Source: Escherichia phage ES
Sequence record: OR466728.1
DNA: 48,315 nt
Direction: 5' to 3' (one strand)
Shown: in pieces, positions 6,391-47,751 of the stretch
How the letters are laid out: each line of letters opens with the position of its first letter
Numbering within the stretch: position 1 is the stretch's first letter
Position numbers and translations under genes: made by a program
The notes under the pieces: generated by a model
Databases searched by the model: none
What the model was told of the DNA's origin: nothing
Seen by the model: the letters and a program-made list of their open reading frames with translations, nothing else

Positions 6391-7851
6391 ATGGAGTTAG
6401 TTGAAATCGCTTCAAATAGCTGCGAAGGACTTGAGGCAAAAGCGAAGGCTTTAATGCCATCATTTCAGCCTTATGACAGTATTATTCTGGTAGGTGACTT
6501 GCCAGTCAGGTGTTTAATGGCGTCTGGAACAGACCTAAGCATTACTGATATCAAGTTCCTAACTTTCGGTAGCCGAGCAAGGCTAATCACTGAAATTAAC
6601 AAGATGATTGCTGATGGTTGGGAGATTTTCGGCGAGCCAAAGGCTGACGCAAACAGATTTGGCACAATTATGACCAAAGGCTTTCAGGGCGCTAAGGGTA
6701 CGGCTGGTGTCGCTGGCCCGCAAGGTCCGCAGGGCGTTCAGGGTTTGCAGGGTCCAGAAGGCCCGCAAGGTCCAAAAGGTAATGATGGCGATGATGGTTC
6801 TCAAGGTGAGCGAGGACCACAAGGTCCGCAGGGTATCCGTGGCGAGCAAGGCGTTCAAGGTCCGCAGGGCATCCAGGGGCCAATCGGCTTAACTGGTGAT
6901 ACAGGTCAGCAGGGGCCAGCTGGTCCAACTGGTGCTACTGGTCCTCGTGGACCTCAAGGTGTGCAAGGTGAGGCTGGTCCTGCTGGCGCTACAGGTCTGG
7001 AATTTAAAGGCGCATGGGCTCCAGGTATCGAATACAAAGCAAACGACGCAGTGGCTTATAACGGTTCAACATGGTTTGCTGTGACTGGAAATACAGACGA
7101 GACACCAGGGACGGGAACATCATGGCAGGTAATGGCATCACAAGGTTCTCGCGGACCAGCCGGACCAGAAGGCCCGCAAGGTGATGTTGGCCCGCAAGGT
7201 GAGCAAGGAATTCAAGGACCAATCGGAGCAACTGGACCATCTGGACCTCAGGGCGCAAAAGGTGATACAGGAGACACTGGACCAGCAGGACCAGAAGGAC
7301 CACAAGGTTTAACTGGACCAGCCGGACCGCAAGGCATTCAAGGACCAGCTGGTGTTCGAGGTGCTACTGGTGCAACTGGTGTAAACGGAGCTAATGGCGC
7401 CACAGGACCGCAAGGGCCAGCTGGACCAAATGGTGATTCAGGTCTTAATTACACATATCAGAAATGGTCAAACGTAGCAAATGGCGTTGGGTATGTAACA
7501 ATCCCCGGGATGCCTAATACACAAATAGGAGTTAACAGGAATTCTGCCGGAGCAATTGTGTACACTCTCTATAGTACTGGTGGAACCGTTAGGTATCTTG
7601 ATTGGCGCGCTGAGATACCATCATATGATACAAATGCAATAACCACGGCTGCTGGCACGGCGACAACACCAAGCTCTGCTGGTGTAATAGCAACGATGAA
7701 TACCGTTTTATATAATGGGTTAAGATCAGTCAAATTTATAATTAAGGATTGGGGCGCATCAAGGATTGCTGTAATTGAATGTTACCAACACGGAAGGGCT
7801 AACTCAGACGCGAGGCCTGTTACTATCGAGATGCGCTCATTCTCTTACTAA
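6391..7851 (+). CDS. collagen-like (Gly-X-Y) repeat protein
   Basis: two long uninterrupted G-X-Y tracts (about 6679-6997 and 7141-7453) flanked by globular N- and C-terminal domains; RBS CAGGAG. Confidence 0.8.
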
Positions 7852-18108: not shown

Positions 18109-21100
18109 ATGGCACAAATGGTCAAAACAAATACGGAGCTATGTGATATGGCACAAGATATTAAGATTTATGGGAGTAAGGGCGGTAGCCAGAAACAGAG
18201 ACAGCCTGTTGAGCAACCTGACAACCTGGTATCTGTAAACAAGGTTAAAGTACTTTTGGCGGTAGCGGATGGTGAGGTTGATAGTTCTTTTTCACTTCGT
18301 GATTTGTACCTGGCTGATGTTCCCGTTCAGAATGCAGATGGTACTTTAAACTACGAAGGAGTCACGGCTGAATTTAGGCCGGGAACTCAAGATCAGGATT
18401 ATATTCCTGGACTTGACGGTGCTAACTCGGAGGTTCAGGTTAGCCGAGAAATCACCAACAGCACTCCTTACATTATTGCCGTTAACAACAGTCAGCTATC
18501 GGCAATTAGGGTTAAGTTGTTTTGGCCAAGACTGATTAGCCAAGAAAGTAATGGCGACCTTAATGGCACTACGTGCGAGTACGCGATTGACTTATCTGTT
18601 GATGGCGCAACTTACACTGAATACACGCGCGGCGTAGCTAATGGCAAGACAACTAGCGGATACGACAGAAGTATCAGGGTTAACCTTCCAGCGGAGTTCT
18701 CTAGCGCACTGGTAAGGATTCGAAAGATTACGGCAGATTCAGAAAGTTCTACGCTGGTTAACGACATGCAAATTACGACCTATCAGGAAGTAATTGATGC
18801 TAAATTCCGCTACCCACTTACAGCGCTGGTTTACGTTGAGTTCAGTTCTGACCTCTTCCCTAACGGAATCCCGACGATTTCAATCAAGAAGAAGTGGAAG
18901 TTGATTCGCGTTCCAACTAACTACAACCCAGAGACAAGGACTTACAGCGGAACCTGGAACGGCACCTTTAAGATGGCGTATTCCAATAACCCGGCGTGGG
19001 TTCTTTACGACTTGGTGACGAATCAGCGTTACGGACTTGACCAGCGAGAGCTTGGCATTACTATTGATAAGTGGGGTCTGTATGAGGCGGCGCAATTCTG
19101 TGACCAGATGGTTCCAGATGGTAAGGGTGGAGTTGAGCCGCGCTACCTGTGTGATGTTGTCATTCAGCAGAAAGTTGAAGCATATCAGGTAATCCGTGAT
19201 ATTTGCTCTATCTTCCGTGGGCTGACATTCTATGACGGCGAGCAGATAGGGATTGTTGTCGATAAGCCGCGTCAACCATCGTACGTATTCACCAATGACA
19301 ACGTTGTTGATGGATTGTTCAACCGTACATTTGGTAGCGATAAGTCACTTTACACGGTTGCCAACGTTCAGTTTGATGACGTTGAAAACTCATACCAACA
19401 GGATGTTGAGCCAGTATTCGAGTTAGAGGCAACAAGGCGTTTTGGTTACAACCCGGTCGACCTTACAGCTATTGGATGTACTCGCAGGAGTGAGGCAAAC
19501 CGCCGCGGGCGCTGGTTATTAAAGACGAACATTCGCAGCGAGACTATTAGTTTCACTACTGGTCTGGAAGGTATGATTCCAATGATTGGTGAGGTTATTG
19601 CAGTTAATGACCAGGCATGGTCTAGCAACTACACCCTTAACCTTTCTGGTCGTATCGAGTCAGTAAGTGGGTTGCAAGTTTTTGTGCCATTTAAGATTGA
19701 TGCTACTGCTGGCGACAGGATTCTAATAAACAAGCCTGATGGAATGCCAGAGTACAGGACCATTGCATCTGTATCTGAAGATGGTATGACGCTGCAACTT
19801 AATACAGCGTTTAGCTTTACTCCTCAGCCTGACACAGTATTTGCGATTGATAAGGAAAATCTTGCTCTTCAGCAATATGTTGTGACCGGGATTCAAAAAG
19901 CAGACAGCGATGGAGACGATGCGTTCGGTTACAGCATTACGGCAGTCGAGTACGACCCGAATAAATACGACGAAATTGATTACGGCGTAAACATTCAGGA
20001 TAGGCCATCGTCAATCGTTGAACCTGACACGCTACTTGCCCCAGAAAATGTTCAGGTGAGCAGCTACAGCAAGGTTGTGCAGGGTTTATCAGTTGAAACA
20101 ATGGTAATCACCTGGGACAAAGTTCAGTACGCCAAGACTTACACGGTACAGTGGCGTAAGGAGAACGGAAACTGGATTAACGTACCGCGCACAGCAAACA
20201 CAGAAGTTGATATTGAAGGTATTTATGCTGGTATTTATCAGGTTCGCGTGAGGGCTGTTTCTGATACTGAAAACGTATCCGCATGGTCTGACATTGTTTC
20301 AGCAAGCCTAACTGGTAAAATTGGAACGCCGTCTGAGCCTACGGTAATCACAGCTTCAGATGATGAAATATTCGGCATTAGGGTTAAGTGGGGATTTCCT
20401 GAAAACTCAGCCGATACGTCATACACTGAATTGCAGCAAGTAGCCGACAATGGTGATGGTACTTACTCACCAGAGAACGCCAGTTTGTTAACGCTAGTTC
20501 CTTACCCGGGTTACGAGTATTGGCACACTACATTGCCGGCAGGAAAGGTTATCTGGTACAGGGCGCGACTGATTGACAAGATTGGTAACGTCTCACCATG
20601 GACTGATTTTGTAAGGGGTATGGCAAGCGATGATGTGTCGTCAATCATTGGTGATATTAAGGTTGATATAGAAAACTCAGATGGGTTCAAGTATCTCCAA
20701 CAGAATGCCATTGAGTCAAACGGAGCTATTCAGGCGCAAGCGGAATCAATAATTGAGAACGCCCTGGCTAATGATGGTGACGTGCGTAGAATGACGAAGG
20801 AAAACGGCAAGAGGAAGGCCGAATTTGTTCAGGCTGTGAATCTTATCGCCGATGAAGAAAGGGCTCGCGTAGAGGCTCTGACGCAGCTTAAAGCGCAGAT
20901 TGATGATGAGATTGTGGCTTCGTTGACAAGGATTGATACGGCGCTAGCGGAAGAAACGCAAGCAAGGACCACTGCGGACACTGCTTTATCTGCAAGGCTC
21001 GGTGAGAATGAAGCTGCTTTAAATGAGAAGCTGGATACTTACGTTACAGCTGATTCAATTGGTGCGCAGTACGGCATTAAGCTGGGTCTTACTTACAATG

Positions 21101-21534
21101 GGGTTGAGTACAATTCAGGGATGAGCATGGAACTAACCGGATCTGGTGGCAATGTTCGCAGTCAGGTCATATTTGATGCTAACAGGTTCGCAATCAGTAA
21201 TGGGGTTAGTTCTGGCTCCGGTCAGTGGTCATTGCCTTTCGTGGTTGAGAATAATCAGGTATTCATTCAAAGCGCAGTGATTCAGGATGGTTCAATCACT
21301 AACGCGAAGATTGGTAACCGGATTCAATCTAATAACTACGTGGCTGGTTCTCAGGGTTGGGCCATTGATAAGTCAGGCAGTGCGGAACTTAACAATGCAA
21401 CTGTAAGGGGTAGTCTGTACGCAAGTAACGGCAACTTTGCGTTTAACGGAACCAACAACACTGTTCAGATTAACAATAATGGAATTACAGTTAATTTACC
21501 GAATGGTGGAAGGGTTGTAGTTGGAGTGTGGTAA
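18109..21534 (+). CDS. J: host specificity protein J (central tail fibre / tip attachment)
   Basis: 1141 aa; segments such as VPTNYNPETRTYSGTWNGTFKMAYSNNPAWVLYDLVTNQRYG match recalled lambda J; start could be ATG 18148. Confidence 0.9.
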   Translation: MAQMVKTNTELCDMAQDIKIYGSKGGSQKQRQPVEQPDNLVSVNKVKVLLAVADGEVDSSFSLRDLYLADVPVQNADGTLNYEGVTAEFRPGTQDQDYIPGLDGANSEVQVSREITNSTPYIIAVNNSQLSAIRVKLFWPRLISQESNGDLNGTTCEYAIDLSVDGATYTEYTRGVANGKTTSGYDRSIRVNLPAEFSSALVRIRKITADSESSTLVNDMQITTYQEVIDAKFRYPLTALVYVEFSSDLFPNGIPTISIKKKWKLIRVPTNYNPETRTYSGTWNGTFKMAYSNNPAWVLYDLVTNQRYGLDQRELGITIDKWGLYEAAQFCDQMVPDGKGGVEPRYLCDVVIQQKVEAYQVIRDICSIFRGLTFYDGEQIGIVVDKPRQPSYVFTNDNVVDGLFNRTFGSDKSLYTVANVQFDDVENSYQQDVEPVFELEATRRFGYNPVDLTAIGCTRRSEANRRGRWLLKTNIRSETISFTTGLEGMIPMIGEVIAVNDQAWSSNYTLNLSGRIESVSGLQVFVPFKIDATAGDRILINKPDGMPEYRTIASVSEDGMTLQLNTAFSFTPQPDTVFAIDKENLALQQYVVTGIQKADSDGDDAFGYSITAVEYDPNKYDEIDYGVNIQDRPSSIVEPDTLLAPENVQVSSYSKVVQGLSVETMVITWDKVQYAKTYTVQWRKENGNWINVPRTANTEVDIEGIYAGIYQVRVRAVSDTENVSAWSDIVSASLTGKIGTPSEPTVITASDDEIFGIRVKWGFPENSADTSYTELQQVADNGDGTYSPENASLLTLVPYPGYEYWHTTLPAGKVIWYRARLIDKIGNVSPWTDFVRGMASDDVSSIIGDIKVDIENSDGFKYLQQNAIESNGAIQAQAESIIENALANDGDVRRMTKENGKRKAEFVQAVNLIADEERARVEALTQLKAQIDDEIVASLTRIDTALAEETQARTTADTALSARLGENEAALNEKLDTYVTADSIGAQYGIKLGLTYNGVEYNSGMSMELTGSGGNVRSQVIFDANRFAISNGVSSGSGQWSLPFVVENNQVFIQSAVIQDGSITNAKIGNRIQSNNYVAGSQGWAIDKSGSAELNNATVRGSLYASNGNFAFNGTNNTVQINNNGITVNLPNGGRVVVGVW

Positions 21535-21541
21535 ATGATTA

Positions 21542-21566
21542 GGCCCCTTTCGGGGCCTTTTCTTTT
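21542..21566. terminator. bidirectional terminator between convergent J and minus-strand genes
   Basis: GGCCCC/GGGGCC stem, TTTC loop, T-rich on plus strand. Confidence 0.55.
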
Positions 21567-22527
21567 AGTAGAAGTTTGGTATGAATGGTAGAGCCATTGA
21601 TATGTTTGTGTCGAATGGGAATTGGGCTCCCGTCTGCGTTGAGTAGTTCCCTATCACAGTGCCTGGAACTGCCCTTACGGCACCACCAGACATGCATATT
21701 CCCTTGTACCTTAAGTTGTTATACCCTCCAGTAACTCTTGTTGTAGCGCCGCACCTGAGCAGTGGGAAGAACCCTCCATTTATTGACTGGAAACCGTTAG
21801 TCATTTGTATAAAGCCACCAAGCACAAACGGTCGCCTAACGCTGGAAAAGACAATCTGTCCAGAACTATTAGACATTGTGAGTCCTGGGCCAGCTACTGG
21901 AGGGTCATTCCTGAATATCACTAACTGTACGTAAGTACTTGCTGCAACGTCATCTATGCCGCTGTAGTTTATGTTGCGGCACCAAATTGTATTACCGTCG
22001 CTCTCCAGAGAAACGTTTGGGTTATCCCATTTACCAAATGGAATCCCACTGACTGGTAGTGAGGCGGCGCCGTTAACCTGTATTCCACCAACCCATGCCG
22101 CAGACATTAACCGCGAATTGCTTGAAATTGCCAAAAAGTCAGTTGAGTTCTCAACCAGTATTCCTGGGCTTGATGAAGACGAGGCTGGGAGTATTTCAAA
22201 GCAATTTCCAGCAAAGTCAATTATACGACCTCTTGCGCCATTGAAGTCACTAAGCGTTATCCTGCCAGTTCCGTCATTTACCTTCTGGAACCCGTTCATA
22301 TAATAAACTTCAGGTACAACATCATAAGCGTCAACGTGCACAGCCTTTGTTGGAAGGCAGAATGCTGTTGATCCTGGGGACATGGTTAAACCAAAATCCC
22401 ATGATGATGCTGGCGTCGAAAGTCCATTGGTATTTATTGAGCCAGTCACAGCGGGCGCTCTTAATCCTGCCGTTATTTCCATAGGTGGCCTTCCGTCGTT
22501 GAGGTCTATCAATATACCCTGTGGCAT
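21565..22527 (-). CDS. hypothetical Gly/Asn/Ser-rich protein; candidate receptor-binding protein
   Basis: 320 aa from ATG 22527 (RBS AAGGAG); TAATG coupling with the upstream lipoprotein gene; function inferred. Confidence 0.35.
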   Translation of the reverse strand: MPQGILIDLNDGRPPMEITAGLRAPAVTGSINTNGLSTPASSWDFGLTMSPGSTAFCLPTKAVHVDAYDVVPEVYYMNGFQKVNDGTGRITLSDFNGARGRIIDFAGNCFEILPASSSSSPGILVENSTDFLAISSNSRLMSAAWVGGIQVNGAASLPVSGIPFGKWDNPNVSLESDGNTIWCRNINYSGIDDVAASTYVQLVIFRNDPPVAGPGLTMSNSSGQIVFSSVRRPFVLGGFIQMTNGFQSINGGFFPLLRCGATTRVTGGYNNLRYKGICMSGGAVRAVPGTVIGNYSTQTGAQFPFDTNISMALPFIPNFY

Positions 22528-22772
22528 TATTTCCACTCCTTAGACCCGTGATCTGCAACTGAACCGCCATAACCTCCACCAGCCTTGCTCTCAATACCAG
22601 CGTAGCGCACATCAACTTCACCAGCCGGTACAATCACGCCACCTTTCCATTTAGCCACGCATACACCGTTTGCTTTCGTTGCACACCATCCGTCAGGACG
22701 CGGAGCAGAAGAGCAACCCACCATTATGATTGCTGCTGCTGCGATGATTGAAAGTTTGATTAAGTTAGTCAT
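22527..22772 (-). CDS. lipoprotein, candidate superinfection-exclusion (Llp/Cor-like)
   Basis: 81 aa from ATG 22772 (RBS AAGGAA); signal peptide with lipobox IMVGC; small Cys-containing mature protein. Confidence 0.5.
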
Positions 22773-22833
22773 TTTCGTATTCCTTGTGAGGTTCGTTTCG
22801 ATGGAGTAATCATACATCATCTATAATCTTTGT

Positions 22834-22851
22834 CTTTAGCAATTCGTGCTA
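22834..22851 (-). promoter_or_regulatory. dyad box copy 4 (minus strand TAGCACGAATTGCTAAAG)
   Basis: on minus strand followed by TATGAT at about 22 nt and CATCGAAAC; 62 nt upstream of lipoprotein ATG. Confidence 0.5.
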
Positions 22852-22910
22852 TTGGTTACGCGTAACCGATGTAACTCGATGTATACCATATGCATCCGCG
22901 GGAAATCGTA

Positions 22911-23000
22911 TACACCTATTTACGCCTCGATACGCCATAGTTACATTAAAATATCTATATATATCAACCCTTTACTCTTATTATTATTATTATATATATT
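22911..23000. repeat. control-region repeat block 1 (copy A) with (TA)n/(TTA)n microsatellite
   Basis: about 80% identical to 43029-43121 by eye, including ATATCTATATATATCAACC..TTTACT..ATTATTATTATTAT. Confidence 0.6.
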
Positions 23001-23143
23001 ACTGTGTATATCATGTAACTACTATTCTGTAGTGTTCCGGTTATAATTTTTATATCATGTGATTTTATACAGTATTGCGAGGCACCCATACCTATGCACC
23101 ATCCGCCAAGATCGGTATACACGATATACGCACCATTTACATT

Positions 23144-23197
23144 GAGCTATAGCTGGGCTCAGGCAGTGAAAAACGTAACCAATAGAAATGTCTACAC
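23144..23197. repeat. control-region repeat block 2 (copy A)
   Basis: AGCTATAGCTGGGCT...AAAACGTAACCAAT matches 43256-43308. Confidence 0.6.
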
Positions 23198-23317
23198 GTA
23201 GTTACGGATTTATACGCGTATACTTGATTAATTAATCGGTGATACCAATTGGACTGTGTGTCTTGCGTGCGGCATCATTACATCATCGAAATCACGCAAC
23301 CAAAGAGAGATAAAGAA

Positions 23318-23515: not shown

Positions 23516-24487
23516 ATGACATTCAAAGTTTATTTAAATAACGAACTTAGCAACGAAGCCTATCACGAAGAGCAGGACCACATCTCTGGCTCTTCACTGG
23601 CTGAGATTCTTGCTACCTCACCAGCTAAATGGAAGTTTAAGCAGCGCAATAACTCTAGCGCAGCACTTAAGTTTGGCACACTAAGTCACTGCATGATGCT
23701 AGAGCGCGAGGTGTTTGACTCAACATACATGCGAGCTACTGACTTTGACGAAGTGGAAGGATTGATTACTAGCCAAACGGCTTTATCCGCAGCGCTTAAA
23801 AAAGTTGGAGTTTCAGGCACGTCAGGGAAGGGTTATAACGAGCTTGTAGAGATGATGTATAAGTGTGGTGAGGATTGGCCTGTTAAATGGTTAATTGAGC
23901 AGCAGGAGAGCGCTCATGCGCTAATTAGTGGCAAAGAGCTAGTTGCTGCGAAAGATTACGATAAAGTAATTCAAATGCGAGAGGTTCTAACTAATATTCC
24001 GGCATATGATTCGGTAATTAATTCACCATCAGCGCAGAAAGAACTATCAATATTTGGTGAGATTCTCGGTTGTGGTGTTAAGGTTCGTCTTGACCATGTG
24101 GATGTTGTTGATGGTATTGTCTACATTACTGACTATAAAACTACGTCAGACGCAAGCCCGAGGGGGTTTGGGAAGTCAGCTTATGACCATGGATACCTGT
24201 GCAAGATGGCACTTCAGCGAGATCTGTTTGTGAAAGCCTTTAATGAGAAACGTAAGGTTGTAGTTCGCCTTCTGGCGCAGGAGAAAACAGAGCCTTACTT
24301 ACCAATGAGCTACACTCTTACGGATGAACAGCTTAGAATTGGACGTTTACAATATTGTGAGGCACTGTCAATTTACAAGAATTGCAAGGAAACAAACATG
24401 TGGCCCGGATACTCAAACGGAGCAACGGAACAGGAGTTAATGATACCTGAATGGGTAATTAACAGTTATAAGGATATTATAAAGTGA
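23516..24487 (+). CDS. PD-(D/E)XK (RecB-family) exonuclease, recombination partner
   Basis: 323 aa; nuclease motif ...D...VYITDYKTT; located just upstream of Erf and SSB. Confidence 0.55.
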   Translation: MTFKVYLNNELSNEAYHEEQDHISGSSLAEILATSPAKWKFKQRNNSSAALKFGTLSHCMMLEREVFDSTYMRATDFDEVEGLITSQTALSAALKKVGVSGTSGKGYNELVEMMYKCGEDWPVKWLIEQQESAHALISGKELVAAKDYDKVIQMREVLTNIPAYDSVINSPSAQKELSIFGEILGCGVKVRLDHVDVVDGIVYITDYKTTSDASPRGFGKSAYDHGYLCKMALQRDLFVKAFNEKRKVVVRLLAQEKTEPYLPMSYTLTDEQLRIGRLQYCEALSIYKNCKETNMWPGYSNGATEQELMIPEWVINSYKDIIK

Positions 24488-24968
24488 TTGATAAATTTAA
24501 TGATATCTTTAGATATGATGGTGAAAAGCTGTACTATAAAAACTGGGTAAACGGTAGAAGTAAGTCTCTTGGACTAGAGGCTGGTAGCAAACAGAATGGT
24601 TACTTGAAAGTTACAATTGGCGGCAGAAATTATAAAGTTCATAGAATTATATGGGAAATGGTTAATGGTGAAATACCTGATGGAATGGAATAGATCACAT
24701 AAATCACGTAAAGGATGATAATAGGATTGAGAATCTAAGGCTGGTAACTCACAAGGAAAACTCAAGAAATAGGAAAAAGAGGTCAGATAACTCTTCAGCA
24801 ACACAGGGCGTTTCTCTGCATAAGATTACAAGGAAGTGGCAATCTTATTGCTCTGATAATGATGGAAAAATTATGTACCTTGGATTATTTGAGGATATTA
24901 ATGATGCTATTGATGCTAGGGTTAAGTTCGCCTCACAATGTGACTTCCATGAGAATCATGGTAAATAG
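24484..24968 (+). pseudogene. HNH endonuclease, frameshifted (1-nt deficit near 24689-24691)
   Basis: N-part VHRIIWEMVNGEIPDGME in frame 1 and C-part IDHINHVKDDNRIENLRLVTHKENSRN in frame 0; paralogue of intact 41210-41707. Confidence 0.6.
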
Positions 24969-29801: not shown

Positions 29802-30275
29802 TTACTCTTTAGCTTTTCGTGCTGCTTCGTTAGCGGCCTTAATCTTGCGCCATGATCGACACTCTGGCTTGGTGGCTAGCTCTGCTTCAGTAACTACGCG
29901 AAGCATATGACGCTTCTTACATCGAAGTGTTAGCGGCTTACCGTTTCCGTCGAATTGCAGGTCTGGTCGGCAGAACGTAGCTCGAAATCCTTCCTTATTT
30001 CTCTTATACGCATTGTGAGCTTTCTGCGCTCCTCGAGCCGAAATCATCCCGCGATCAAACCATTGCTCTACAGTCTGGTGAGATACGTTTAACTGCTTTG
30101 CGATGTTCGCCTTTGTTCCATAGAAATCAAGAACCATCTCCAGGCGAGCACGTAGCCCAGCCTTTACCTCATCTTTCAATACGTAGTAGCCTGACGGTCG
30201 TTTGCGTTGCTTCTTGTCTTGTGTGCGTACCGTTCCGTTATTGCCGTTAATAGTTCGTTTGTCAATTTCACACAT
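29802..30275 (-). CDS. HTH DNA-binding protein (candidate transcription regulator)
   Basis: 157 aa, basic, HTH-like GTKANIAKQLNVSHQTVEQWFDRG; RBS GAGG; a dyad box overlaps its 5' region. Confidence 0.5.
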   Translation of the reverse strand: MCEIDKRTINGNNGTVRTQDKKQRKRPSGYYVLKDEVKAGLRARLEMVLDFYGTKANIAKQLNVSHQTVEQWFDRGMISARGAQKAHNAYKRNKEGFRATFCRPDLQFDGNGKPLTLRCKKRHMLRVVTEAELATKPECRSWRKIKAANEAARKAKE

Positions 30276-42899: not shown

Positions 42900-43028
42900 T
42901 GATTGATGTGGGGTGAATGAATAGTGGATGAACTACCATACAAGTTGATTTTGATTCTTGCTGAGCCAATTTGGATATACACGTTATCGAAGTTATGGTG
43001 TGTATATGAGGTGCGCTTCCGAAGAATC

Positions 43029-43121
43029 ATACACGCCTACCACGCGAGATTACGCAATGGTTACATAATAATATCTATATATATCAACCTTTTACTATAT
43101 TATTATTATTATTATATATAT
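43029..43121. repeat. control-region repeat block 1 (copy B) with (TAT)n microsatellite
   Basis: matches 22911-23000. Confidence 0.6.
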
Positions 43122-43255
43122 GTATGTATATGGTGTAGATTGGTCGTATGGATGGGTCGATAGTTTTTCTATGAAAACTACTAATTTTATCTATATAGAT
43201 ACATATGCATACCCCCGGCGAATCCGCGTAAAATCTTACACAGGGTAATTACACC

Positions 43256-43308
43256 AGCTATAGCTGGGCTGAGAGGTCAAAAAGCGTAACCAATGCAGAT
43301 ATAAACAC
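43256..43308. repeat. control-region repeat block 2 (copy B)
   Basis: matches 23144-23197 (AGCTATAGCTGGGCT...GCGTAACCAAT). Confidence 0.6.
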
Positions 43309-43388
43309 AACATAACACTTGATAACGCGTATATTCATGATACCATGGTTTCATCTTAACGAAGAGCAACCAATCAGGAGTAACGAAT

Positions 43389-43910
43389 ATGTCAGAACAT
43401 AAAGAAGCAGTAAGTTTGGGTGAAATCATTCGATACATGGCGAGTCAGGCGCTCAAGTCAGAAGACAAAGTGTGCACAGTCCCTGTGACCATGATTGCTC
43501 GTCAATACTTCGGCATGAGTCGTGAGACGTTCGTATCGCTAAGTGGTGAGGAGGTTCTACCTGGTGGTGAATACCACATGCCAAAACTAAAAGCGTCATA
43601 CGTTTCAAACACCGTAAGCCGAATGCCTGAGATTAAGGCGGCTGACGTGCGCTCAAGGTTCTCACTTAGTTTTACCGACTTTGAGGGCGAGAGTGAGACA
43701 TACTGCGCATCACTTAGCCTGGTTCCTGGCGCTGTAAAATCCGGCTCAAGAAGCAAAGCAGAGCAAGAGAAGGAGGCGGCTACCATTGAAAGGTTCAAGG
43801 CTCGATTGTTGAAACTATCACCAAGCGTCGCTGGTCTTGAAGGTGATGAACTTAAGGGTGCAGTATCAATGATTAACGCATACCAGGAAATGATTAAGGA
43901 GACTAAATAG
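43389..43910 (+). CDS. hypothetical protein (first gene of early region)
   Basis: 173-aa ORF, RBS CAGGAG. Confidence 0.5.
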   Translation: MSEHKEAVSLGEIIRYMASQALKSEDKVCTVPVTMIARQYFGMSRETFVSLSGEEVLPGGEYHMPKLKASYVSNTVSRMPEIKAADVRSRFSLSFTDFEGESETYCASLSLVPGAVKSGSRSKAEQEKEAATIERFKARLLKLSPSVAGLEGDELKGAVSMINAYQEMIKETK

Positions 43911-47675: not shown

Positions 47676-47751
47676 GTTCTGCTGGCGTAACAGGATAACG
47701 CAAAGACCTCCTAAGTCTTAGTTACTGGTTCGAGTCCAGTGCGGAACACCA
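47676..47751 (+). tRNA. tRNA-Arg (anticodon CCT)
   Basis: hand-folded cloverleaf: 7-bp acceptor GTTCTGC/GCGGAAC, D-arm GCGT/ACGC with GG loop, anticodon loop CTCCTAA, T-arm ACTGG-TTCGAGT-CCAGT, discriminator A, encoded CCA. Confidence 0.8.

Follow-up and report, generated by a model that had tools for sequence, protein, structure and literature searches.

A putative LptD-binding receptor-binding protein and its translationally coupled putative exclusion lipoprotein downstream of J in Escherichia phage ES

The window analyzed here is a 48,315-nucleotide stretch of Escherichia phage ES (sequence record OR466728.1), and our subject is the minus-strand gene pair that lies next to the tail-tip gene J and codes for an 81-amino-acid (aa) lipoprotein and a 320-aa protein. 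At the level of the class, we assign the pair with high confidence to the terminal-receptor module of the T1-like (Drexlerviridae) virulent coliphages, the 320-aa product being the putative LptD-binding receptor-binding protein (RBP) and the 81-aa product the putative exclusion lipoprotein, which would bind LptDE. The predicted terminal receptor of the phage is LptD. A sequence-only reading of the window had already put forward an RBP with a superinfection-exclusion lipoprotein, by analogy with the Llp and Cor lipoproteins of T5- and phi80-type phages, and had given that analogy as its only support; the proposal stands, and the analogy is now replaced by homology to the Oekolampad RBP and to Rtp45, both known in complex with LptDE.

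The putative RBP gene occupies positions 21565-22527 on the minus strand and codes for a 33.8 kDa protein of the Rtp44/RBP_Oeko/OzMSK_038 type, an LptD-targeting family listed in Pfam as DUF6453. Against the DUF6453 profile (PF20051; curated cut-off, 25 bits) the protein scored 458.2 bits (E 1.5e-137), with residues 4-297 aligned to profile positions 1-291 of 291. A search of solved structures returned one match, PDB 9rpt_C ('Tail fiber protein'; E 1.5e-66, residues 2-320 on 2-321), and BLASTP gave 43% identity end to end with this chain. According to the depositors and the data-availability statement, 9RPT holds Shigella flexneri LptDE together with the RBP of phage Oekolampad (Bas18), which enters the LptD lumen deeply from the extracellular side and meets the translocon in an open state (bioRxiv 10.1101/2025.07.07.663478). 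Identity rose to 93% with OzMSK_038, from which the window protein differs at 23 of 320 positions and whose GenBank label (PQ659294) is 'putative LptD-receptor binding protein based on experimental evidence'. Two lptD loop-deletion mutants were not infected by OzMSK (PMC13035648), and lptD mutants resist Bas01, Bas02 and Bas18 (PMC8594841). Other homologues were found in Rogue1 (87.5% identity), phiEB49 (63%) and Rtp (Rtp44, 40% end to end), the last being 96.5% identical to the RBP of AugustePiccard/Bas01. The family has been delimited by more than 30% identity and near-complete coverage to the RBPs of experimentally LptD-dependent phages (bioRxiv 10.64898/2026.04.02.716166), and the identities of the window protein to the OzMSK, Oekolampad and Rtp44 proteins all lie above that value and run from end to end.

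Conservation is unevenly spread along the family. In an alignment of eight RBPs, the other seven being 32-93% identical to the window protein, residues 1-20 carry 10 of the invariant columns and residues ~25-115 almost none. A conserved N-terminus fits a tail-docking end and the variable end fits receptor binding, as far as can be read from the alignment; the OzMSK authors argued for the same division from models (PMC13035648). The description of the protein as Gly/Asn/Ser-rich in the sequence-only reading is true, but only mildly so (Gly 11.9%, Ser 10.0%, Asn 7.5%).

The lipoprotein gene, of the Rtp45 family, lies at positions 22527-22772 on the minus strand. Its 81-aa precursor carries the lipobox that had been read from the sequence (IMVG followed by Cys20), and the N-terminus ends in AAAAIIMVG before C20-S-S, with Ser and not Asp at +2. 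The sole hydrophobic window of the protein spans residues 1-25, the N-terminal signal peptide. Under the standard Lol rule, Ser at +2 leads to the expectation of outer-membrane sorting. The precursor matched the Pfam 'Phage lipoprotein family' (Phage_lipoprotein, PF24052; cut-off, 27 bits) with 132.6 bits and E 4.9e-39, residues 1-80 aligning to profile positions 1-80 of 80, and it matched PDB 9rps_D with E 1.4e-36. 9RPS is the complex of LptDE-LptM with Rtp45, a protein reported as '~6 kDa' (bioRxiv 10.1101/2025.07.07.663478), in agreement with the 62 aa and 6.3 kDa of the mature form in the window. Identity was 78% to Rtp45 and 85% to OzMSK_039. The alignment also showed that Cys30 and Cys38, a disulphide pair in the Rtp45 structure, are conserved, and that the strand at residues 30-35, which in Rtp45 pairs with LptD residues 318-323, reads CATKAN where Rtp45 has CATQAS, a likeness at the level of sequence conservation. 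The structure places Rtp45 between LptE and LptM, on the periplasmic side, with a hairpin that reaches up the lumen, and it shows extracellular loop 4 of LptD displaced by up to 20 Å, a state incompatible with RBP binding (bioRxiv 10.1101/2025.07.07.663478).

Two other candidates for lipoprotein genes were rejected. A longer, 97-aa open reading frame (ORF) begins at the ATG at 22820; PF24052 aligns from the MTNLIK start, the homologues in Rtp, OzMSK, Rogue1 and phiEB49 begin with M(T/N)N(L/F)IK, and the ATG at 22820 sits upstream of the −10-like hexamer described below. A second lipoprotein paralogue near 42.8 kb, to which the repeat family D13 had pointed, was discarded because the ORF list holds no lipoprotein there, just a short similarity in hydrophobic-coding sequence.

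The surroundings of the pair agree with these matches. By its sequence the window is a T1-like coliphage, and over bases 21300-23100 it matches Escherichia phage AN_ECEAS (PP944860; Drexlerviridae, Braunvirinae) with 100% identity; the record of AN_ECEAS labels the pair 'hypothetical protein' (320 aa) and 'putative lipoprotein' (81 aa). The J-like tail-tip gene lies at 18109-21534 on the plus strand and codes for 1141 aa from the first ATG (1128 aa in AN_ECEAS), with Phage_Tail_Tip, FNIII-A_GpJ and phrog_31 matches; the pair is convergent with it, as previously noted, and lies 30 nucleotides (nt) from its stop codon. The neighborhood follows the standard T1/Rtp layout of tape measure, minor tail proteins, J, the RBP/lipoprotein pair, exonuclease VIII, an Erf-type recombinase and a single-stranded DNA-binding protein (SSB), and gene order around the pair is the same in the window, Rtp and OzMSK. 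The window has a 963-bp RBP ORF directly after the gpJ homologue and beside a lipoprotein gene, a layout that recurs in Rtp, OzMSK, Rogue1, phiEB49, Bas01, Bas02 and Bas83. The locus of the LptD-RBP family is defined by an ORF of 930-966 bp directly downstream of a gpJ homologue with a small lipoprotein gene adjacent, and all of these were found in the window. That both ORFs are real genes and not chance is shown by their Pfam E-values and by the 423 records of the phage collection that hold a homologue of the 320-aa protein. NCBIfam gave no family matching either protein, and an Rfam scan of the whole window gave no match at the locus. No copy of the module was found in the chromosomes or prophages of 5,426 complete E. 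coli genomes at blastn sensitivity, which is consistent with a module of virulent phages.

The coupling junction (22525-22539, minus strand) contains a GGAG Shine-Dalgarno sequence (22536-22539), which still falls within the lipoprotein gene near its end and precedes the RBP ATG by 8 nt, and the stop/start overlap TAATG (22525-22529), in which the lipoprotein TAA and the RBP ATG have one base in common (AAATAATGCC). The TAATG overlap read earlier as translational coupling was in this way confirmed, and the 1-nt overlap is annotated likewise in AN_ECEAS, OzMSK, Rtp, Rogue1 and phiEB49. The lipoprotein gene has its own Shine-Dalgarno sequence, AAGGA (22781-22785, minus strand), 8 nt before the ATG at 22772 and conserved in relatives. 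On the far side of the pair, a GC-rich hairpin, AGGCCCC-TTTC-GGGGCCT (21541-21558), lies between the two convergent stop codons; it has a terminator score on the plus strand only, where its T-run makes it a clear terminator for J, and the homologous site in Rogue1 is annotated as a rho-independent terminator.

Upstream of the lipoprotein ATG, at a distance of 62 nt, lies a perfect copy of a promoter box (ATAGCACGAATTGCTAAA, 22835-22852, minus strand) with the dyad TAGCA-N5-TGCTA, the copy that had been numbered fourth in the sequence-only reading. With up to three mismatches the box was matched 12 times in the window against 0.05 expected by chance, and altogether ~18 oriented copies, among them those at 2889-2906, 11565, 24965, 28756, 33924, 34178, 37746, 42154 (minus strand) and 45199, stand ahead of structural, recombination and small early-type genes with one downstream architecture: the dyad TAGCA-N5-TG(C/T)TA, a fixed 22 nt, a −10-like hexamer, CATCGAAAC, a Shine-Dalgarno sequence and the ATG. 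At the lipoprotein gene the hexamer is TATGAT (22809-22814, minus strand; promoter call AAGACA-16-TATGAT), 22 nt after the dyad, and the leader motif CATCGAAAC (22795-22803, minus strand) is kept in other copies and in other phages. Rtp, OzMSK and Rogue1 show this architecture ahead of their lipoprotein genes as well. The box probably drives transcription of the operon, which would start near 22802; with the start ~7 nt after the hexamer, the dyad would be centered near −42. This is the position typical of class II activators in established promoter geometry. TTGCTA is too far from the TATGAT hexamer to play the role of a −35 element, and the position of the dyad suggests a phage-encoded activator of the class II type. 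A candidate that may bind the box is the phage helix-turn-helix (HTH) regulator encoded at 29802-30275 on the minus strand (157 aa), which is 89% identical to Rtp52, labelled in GenBank 'putative transcriptional regulator, strong HTH prediction'. In the 2006 Rtp genome paper of Wietzorrek et al., Rtp45 was reportedly taken to be Cor-like, and ~10 inverted repeats were reportedly placed under the control of Rtp52, an account that has the backing of the GenBank notes.

From these elements we propose the following mechanism. The two genes would form one operon behind one box copy, lipoprotein first and RBP second, translationally coupled and ending at the hairpin shared with J. The RBP would be held non-covalently at the distal end of J, its presumed carrier, through the strongly conserved N-terminus, and its loop-bearing end would be inserted into the lumen of LptD, in the outer-membrane lipopolysaccharide translocon LptDE, so that adsorption would become irreversible and the ejection of DNA would be triggered. 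The lipoprotein, 81 aa long as a precursor, would be exported, lipidated at Cys20 and, with Ser at +2, directed to the outer membrane, into its inner leaflet. From the periplasmic side of LptDE it would push extracellular loop 4 outward and keep LptD in a conformation unfit for RBP binding, and infected cells and their debris would cease to adsorb this phage and other LptD-targeting phages. Such an adsorption block would result both in superinfection exclusion and in released progeny not being lost on debris. The attachment of the RBP to J and the exclusion phenotype of the lipoprotein are steps that we infer.

Several points weigh against this assignment. For the phage itself the evidence consists of gene anatomy, family membership and homology to solved complexes, and LptDE binding and the dependence of infection on LptD have been shown for homologues only. 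The nearest solved RBP shares 43% identity with the window protein, and conservation is lowest in the loops predicted to contact the receptor. In bioRxiv 10.1101/2025.07.07.663478 exclusion is argued from structure, and no in vivo assay of exclusion by lipoproteins of the Rtp45 family was found there. The RBP is not among the virion proteins reported for two close relatives, Rogue1 and AKS96, from gel-band proteomics in which only the major bands were analyzed. Lastly, the T-run of the hairpin is poor on the minus strand, and the end of the operon transcript is uncertain.

Among the alternatives, we consider it quite unlikely that the same module serves another receptor, either because the RBP has drifted or recombined toward an outer-membrane protein other than LptD, or because a second receptor is engaged through J. 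The receptor-contact loops are the variable part of the RBP family (PMC13035648; the variable blocks of our alignment), and the 23 differences set the window allele apart from the OzMSK allele that was tested. In addition, the Braunvirinae relative Bas01 requires NupG besides LptD, by means of a special J domain (bioRxiv 10.64898/2026.04.02.716166). Nevertheless, OzMSK, with its 93% identical RBP, fails on lptD mutants, the match between family and receptor is reported without exception (PMC8594841; bioRxiv 10.64898/2026.04.02.716166), and the cognate lipoprotein is of the LptDE-binding Rtp45 type. Regarding a second receptor, the ~33-aa insertion and the divergent stretch that only Bas01 has are missing from the window J, which in that part shares 89-93% identity with Bas02 and Rtp; a NupG-type domain in the window J was rejected on the absence of the Bas01-specific insertion.

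That the lipoprotein belongs to the Cor/Llp type and inactivates FhuA, as in T5, phi80 or T1, seems to us very improbable. The size class, the lipobox and the position beside the RBP gene are equal, there is a weak PHROG match to 'Cor superinfection exclusion protein' (phrog_1119, E 0.021), and the relative vB_Ec-G8 is so annotated in GenBank. However, this match is limited to residues 6-34, mostly signal peptide, whereas the full-length matches are PF24052 and the LptDE-bound Rtp45, and the locus holds no FhuA-type RBP. We rejected membership of the Cor/Llp group; beyond PF24052, the only Pfam match was a chance-level one to SGL (E 0.11). What the window pair shares with T5 pb5 (oad)/Llp and with the Cor systems of phi80, T1, N15 and HK022 is a common logic, a tail-tip RBP and an adjacent small lipoprotein acting periplasmically on the same receptor. 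Pfam and PHROGs profile searches detected no homology of the window pair to either, so the likeness to Llp and Cor on which the earlier analogy drew is functional and not one of kinship. Nor does the FhuA part of the analogy hold if taken literally: the receptor in those systems is FhuA, and for the window pair homology points to LptD/LptDE, not a TonB-dependent transporter. The blocks differ as well, that of Rtp45 being a physical displacement of extracellular loops through the barrel lumen and that of Llp on FhuA a long-range allostery (bioRxiv 10.1101/2025.07.07.663478).

We give next to no credence to the 320-aa protein being a non-virion membrane protein or moron with J alone setting host specificity, a notion in line with its PHROGs assignment (phrog_1265, 'membrane protein; moron, auxiliary metabolic gene and host takeover'), with 'membrane protein' labels in RefSeq and with the silence of the Rogue1 and AKS96 gel-band data, because the protein has no signal peptide and no transmembrane-like hydrophobic segment (maximum 19-residue Kyte-Doolittle score, 0.97), a homologue could be purified in soluble form and its structure was solved inserted in LptDE from the extracellular face, a Klebsiella Webervirus homologue lies directly after J on the same strand, and a distant Kuravirus homologue lies among tail-tip genes and is annotated as structural; the annotation was rejected on the missing segment and on the homology to the soluble LptDE-bound RBP.

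Returning to the LptD-directed module, comparison with relatives showed it to be mosaic. In a sliding window, DNA identity to Rtp was 82-93% from the promoter to two thirds of the way through the lipoprotein gene, fell to ~45% from ~22630, in the 3′ third of that gene, through the entire RBP gene, and was regained just in patches in the 3′ end of J, namely at ~21490-21520 and upstream of ~21370. Against OzMSK and Rogue1 the identity remained at 70-90% throughout. The putative recombination cassette spans ~21380-22630. The lipoprotein is consequently a hybrid: its signal peptide is of the Rtp type, and its C-terminal tail, which bears a 5-residue Gly-rich insertion, is of the Rogue1/OzMSK type. 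The collapse of identity inside its gene leaves an Rtp45-like lipoprotein (78%) combined with an RBP that shares only 40% identity with Rtp44. Over its last ~50 aa J varies together with the RBP type, and the window J is of the OzMSK type (ending in VVVGVW), not of the Rtp/Bas01/Bas02 type (VVVGTF). Both results agree with published work, in which RBP loci are described as horizontally moving (PMC8594841) and the J tip as bearing receptor-class-specific sequence (bioRxiv 10.64898/2026.04.02.716166). We tentatively suggest that the module is a recombinant cassette in which one lipoprotein type, if it acts like Rtp45, would block RBP lineages sharing only ~40% identity, and that the main role of the lipoprotein is maybe the protection of progeny. 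The coupling of the lipoprotein to the RBP behind an activator-type box hints at the latter, that is, at shielding progeny from the debris of lysed cells and not at an early barrier to superinfection.

Of the known systems, OzMSK gp038/gp039 (vB_ecoS_OzMSK, PQ659294; PMC13035648) resembles the pair in gene order, lengths (320 and 81 aa), 1-nt overlap, position after J and the type of J C-terminal tip, besides the identities of 93% (RBP) and 85% (lipoprotein) given above. It differs in that its lipoprotein gene is directly preceded by a gene for a DNA methylase, which the window lacks at that place, and in the signal peptide, which in the window is Rtp-like; OzMSK gp039 is still labelled 'hypothetical protein'. 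The Oekolampad RBP (Bas18; PDB 9RPT, 9RPW and 9RQI) is a full-length homologue with a near-identical N-terminus (GILID.NDGRP.MEITAGLRAP), and its Gln299, which forms a hydrogen bond with LptD Ser350 in the structure, is aligned with a Gln in the window RBP. Oekolampad belongs to another phage group (Dhillonvirus), and residues ~25-115 and the C-terminal ~25 residues have strongly diverged, so that the exact LptD contacts may differ. In Haito/Bas83, whose RBP is 89% identical to RBP_Oeko, the lipoprotein is only ~35% identical to that of the window. Rtp45 (PDB 9RPS) shares a near-identical signal peptide and lipobox, the conserved Cys30-Cys38 pair and a conserved 10-residue segment with the window lipoprotein, and Rtp has the same operon layout and promoter box; the window lipoprotein differs in its Gly-rich insertion near the C-terminus, where Rtp45 reads KGSSG, and the low identity of Rtp44, the partner of Rtp45, has been described above.

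Other features of the window were recorded alongside the locus. Two paralogous AT-rich divergent intergenic regions of ~400 bp (22850-23260 and 42960-43400) are 76% identical, and each has TATCTATATATATCAACC.TTTAC as well as a (TTA)n(TA)n tract. The first of them stands between the operon of the lipoprotein and the genes for exonuclease and recombinase. Both regions may serve as divergent early promoters or as something akin to an origin. Directly after the exonuclease VIII gene comes a small ORF of 69 aa (24484-24693) that is HNH endonuclease-like and is labelled 'putative HNH endonuclease' in AN_ECEAS; it is probably one of the homing elements that are typical of T1-like genomes. Positions 6685-7444, among the structural genes, hold long coding repeats of the collagen-like type (Gly-X-Y), which were found as the direct-repeat families D1, D2 and D6. 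A single tRNA gene, the only Rfam match in the window, lies at 47676-47748 (RF00005, 58.9 bits).

DUF6453 homologues also occur outside the convergent J/lipoprotein layout. Klebsiella phage Opt-817 (Webervirus; locus L008, 1501-2457) has one after J on the same strand, without a lipoprotein gene and with 30-32% identity, and the Kuravirus podophage Escherichia phage LAMP (locus L009, 2453-3487) has a 25%-identical 'putative structural protein' beside a tail-tip fibre gene. These cases indicate that the family is a broader tail-tip/RBP fold. Public labels of the family are inconsistent and partly wrong, ranging from DUF6453 in Pfam through 'membrane protein / moron' in PHROGs and RefSeq to 'tail fiber' in some records, and in one record an Rtp45-type lipoprotein is labelled 'Cor superinfection exclusion protein' though it is no Cor homologue.

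The module as such is already known from work published between 2021 and 2026, and we report no new kind of biology. Small siphophages were reported in 2021 to carry a recurrent 'RBP locus downstream of gpJ' (PMC8594841). The year 2025 brought the link of the OzMSK orthologue to LptD (PMC13035648) and the release of structures that show each of the two protein types on LptDE (bioRxiv 10.1101/2025.07.07.663478; PDB 9RPT, 9RPS), and a 2026 preprint reconfirmed the link between the family and LptD (bioRxiv 10.64898/2026.04.02.716166). The recombination boundaries of the cassette and the geometry of its promoter are minor additions to it. The practical gain is a confident annotation, in which 'hypothetical protein' and 'putative lipoprotein' would give way to a predicted LptD-binding RBP and a predicted LptDE-binding exclusion lipoprotein. 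LptD is essential, conserved and surface-exposed, hence the interest of LptD-binding phages and phage proteins for phage steering, for the design of host ranges and for LptD inhibitors. If the lipoprotein acts like Rtp45, exclusion groups among LptD phages would be much broader than the similarity of their RBPs suggests.

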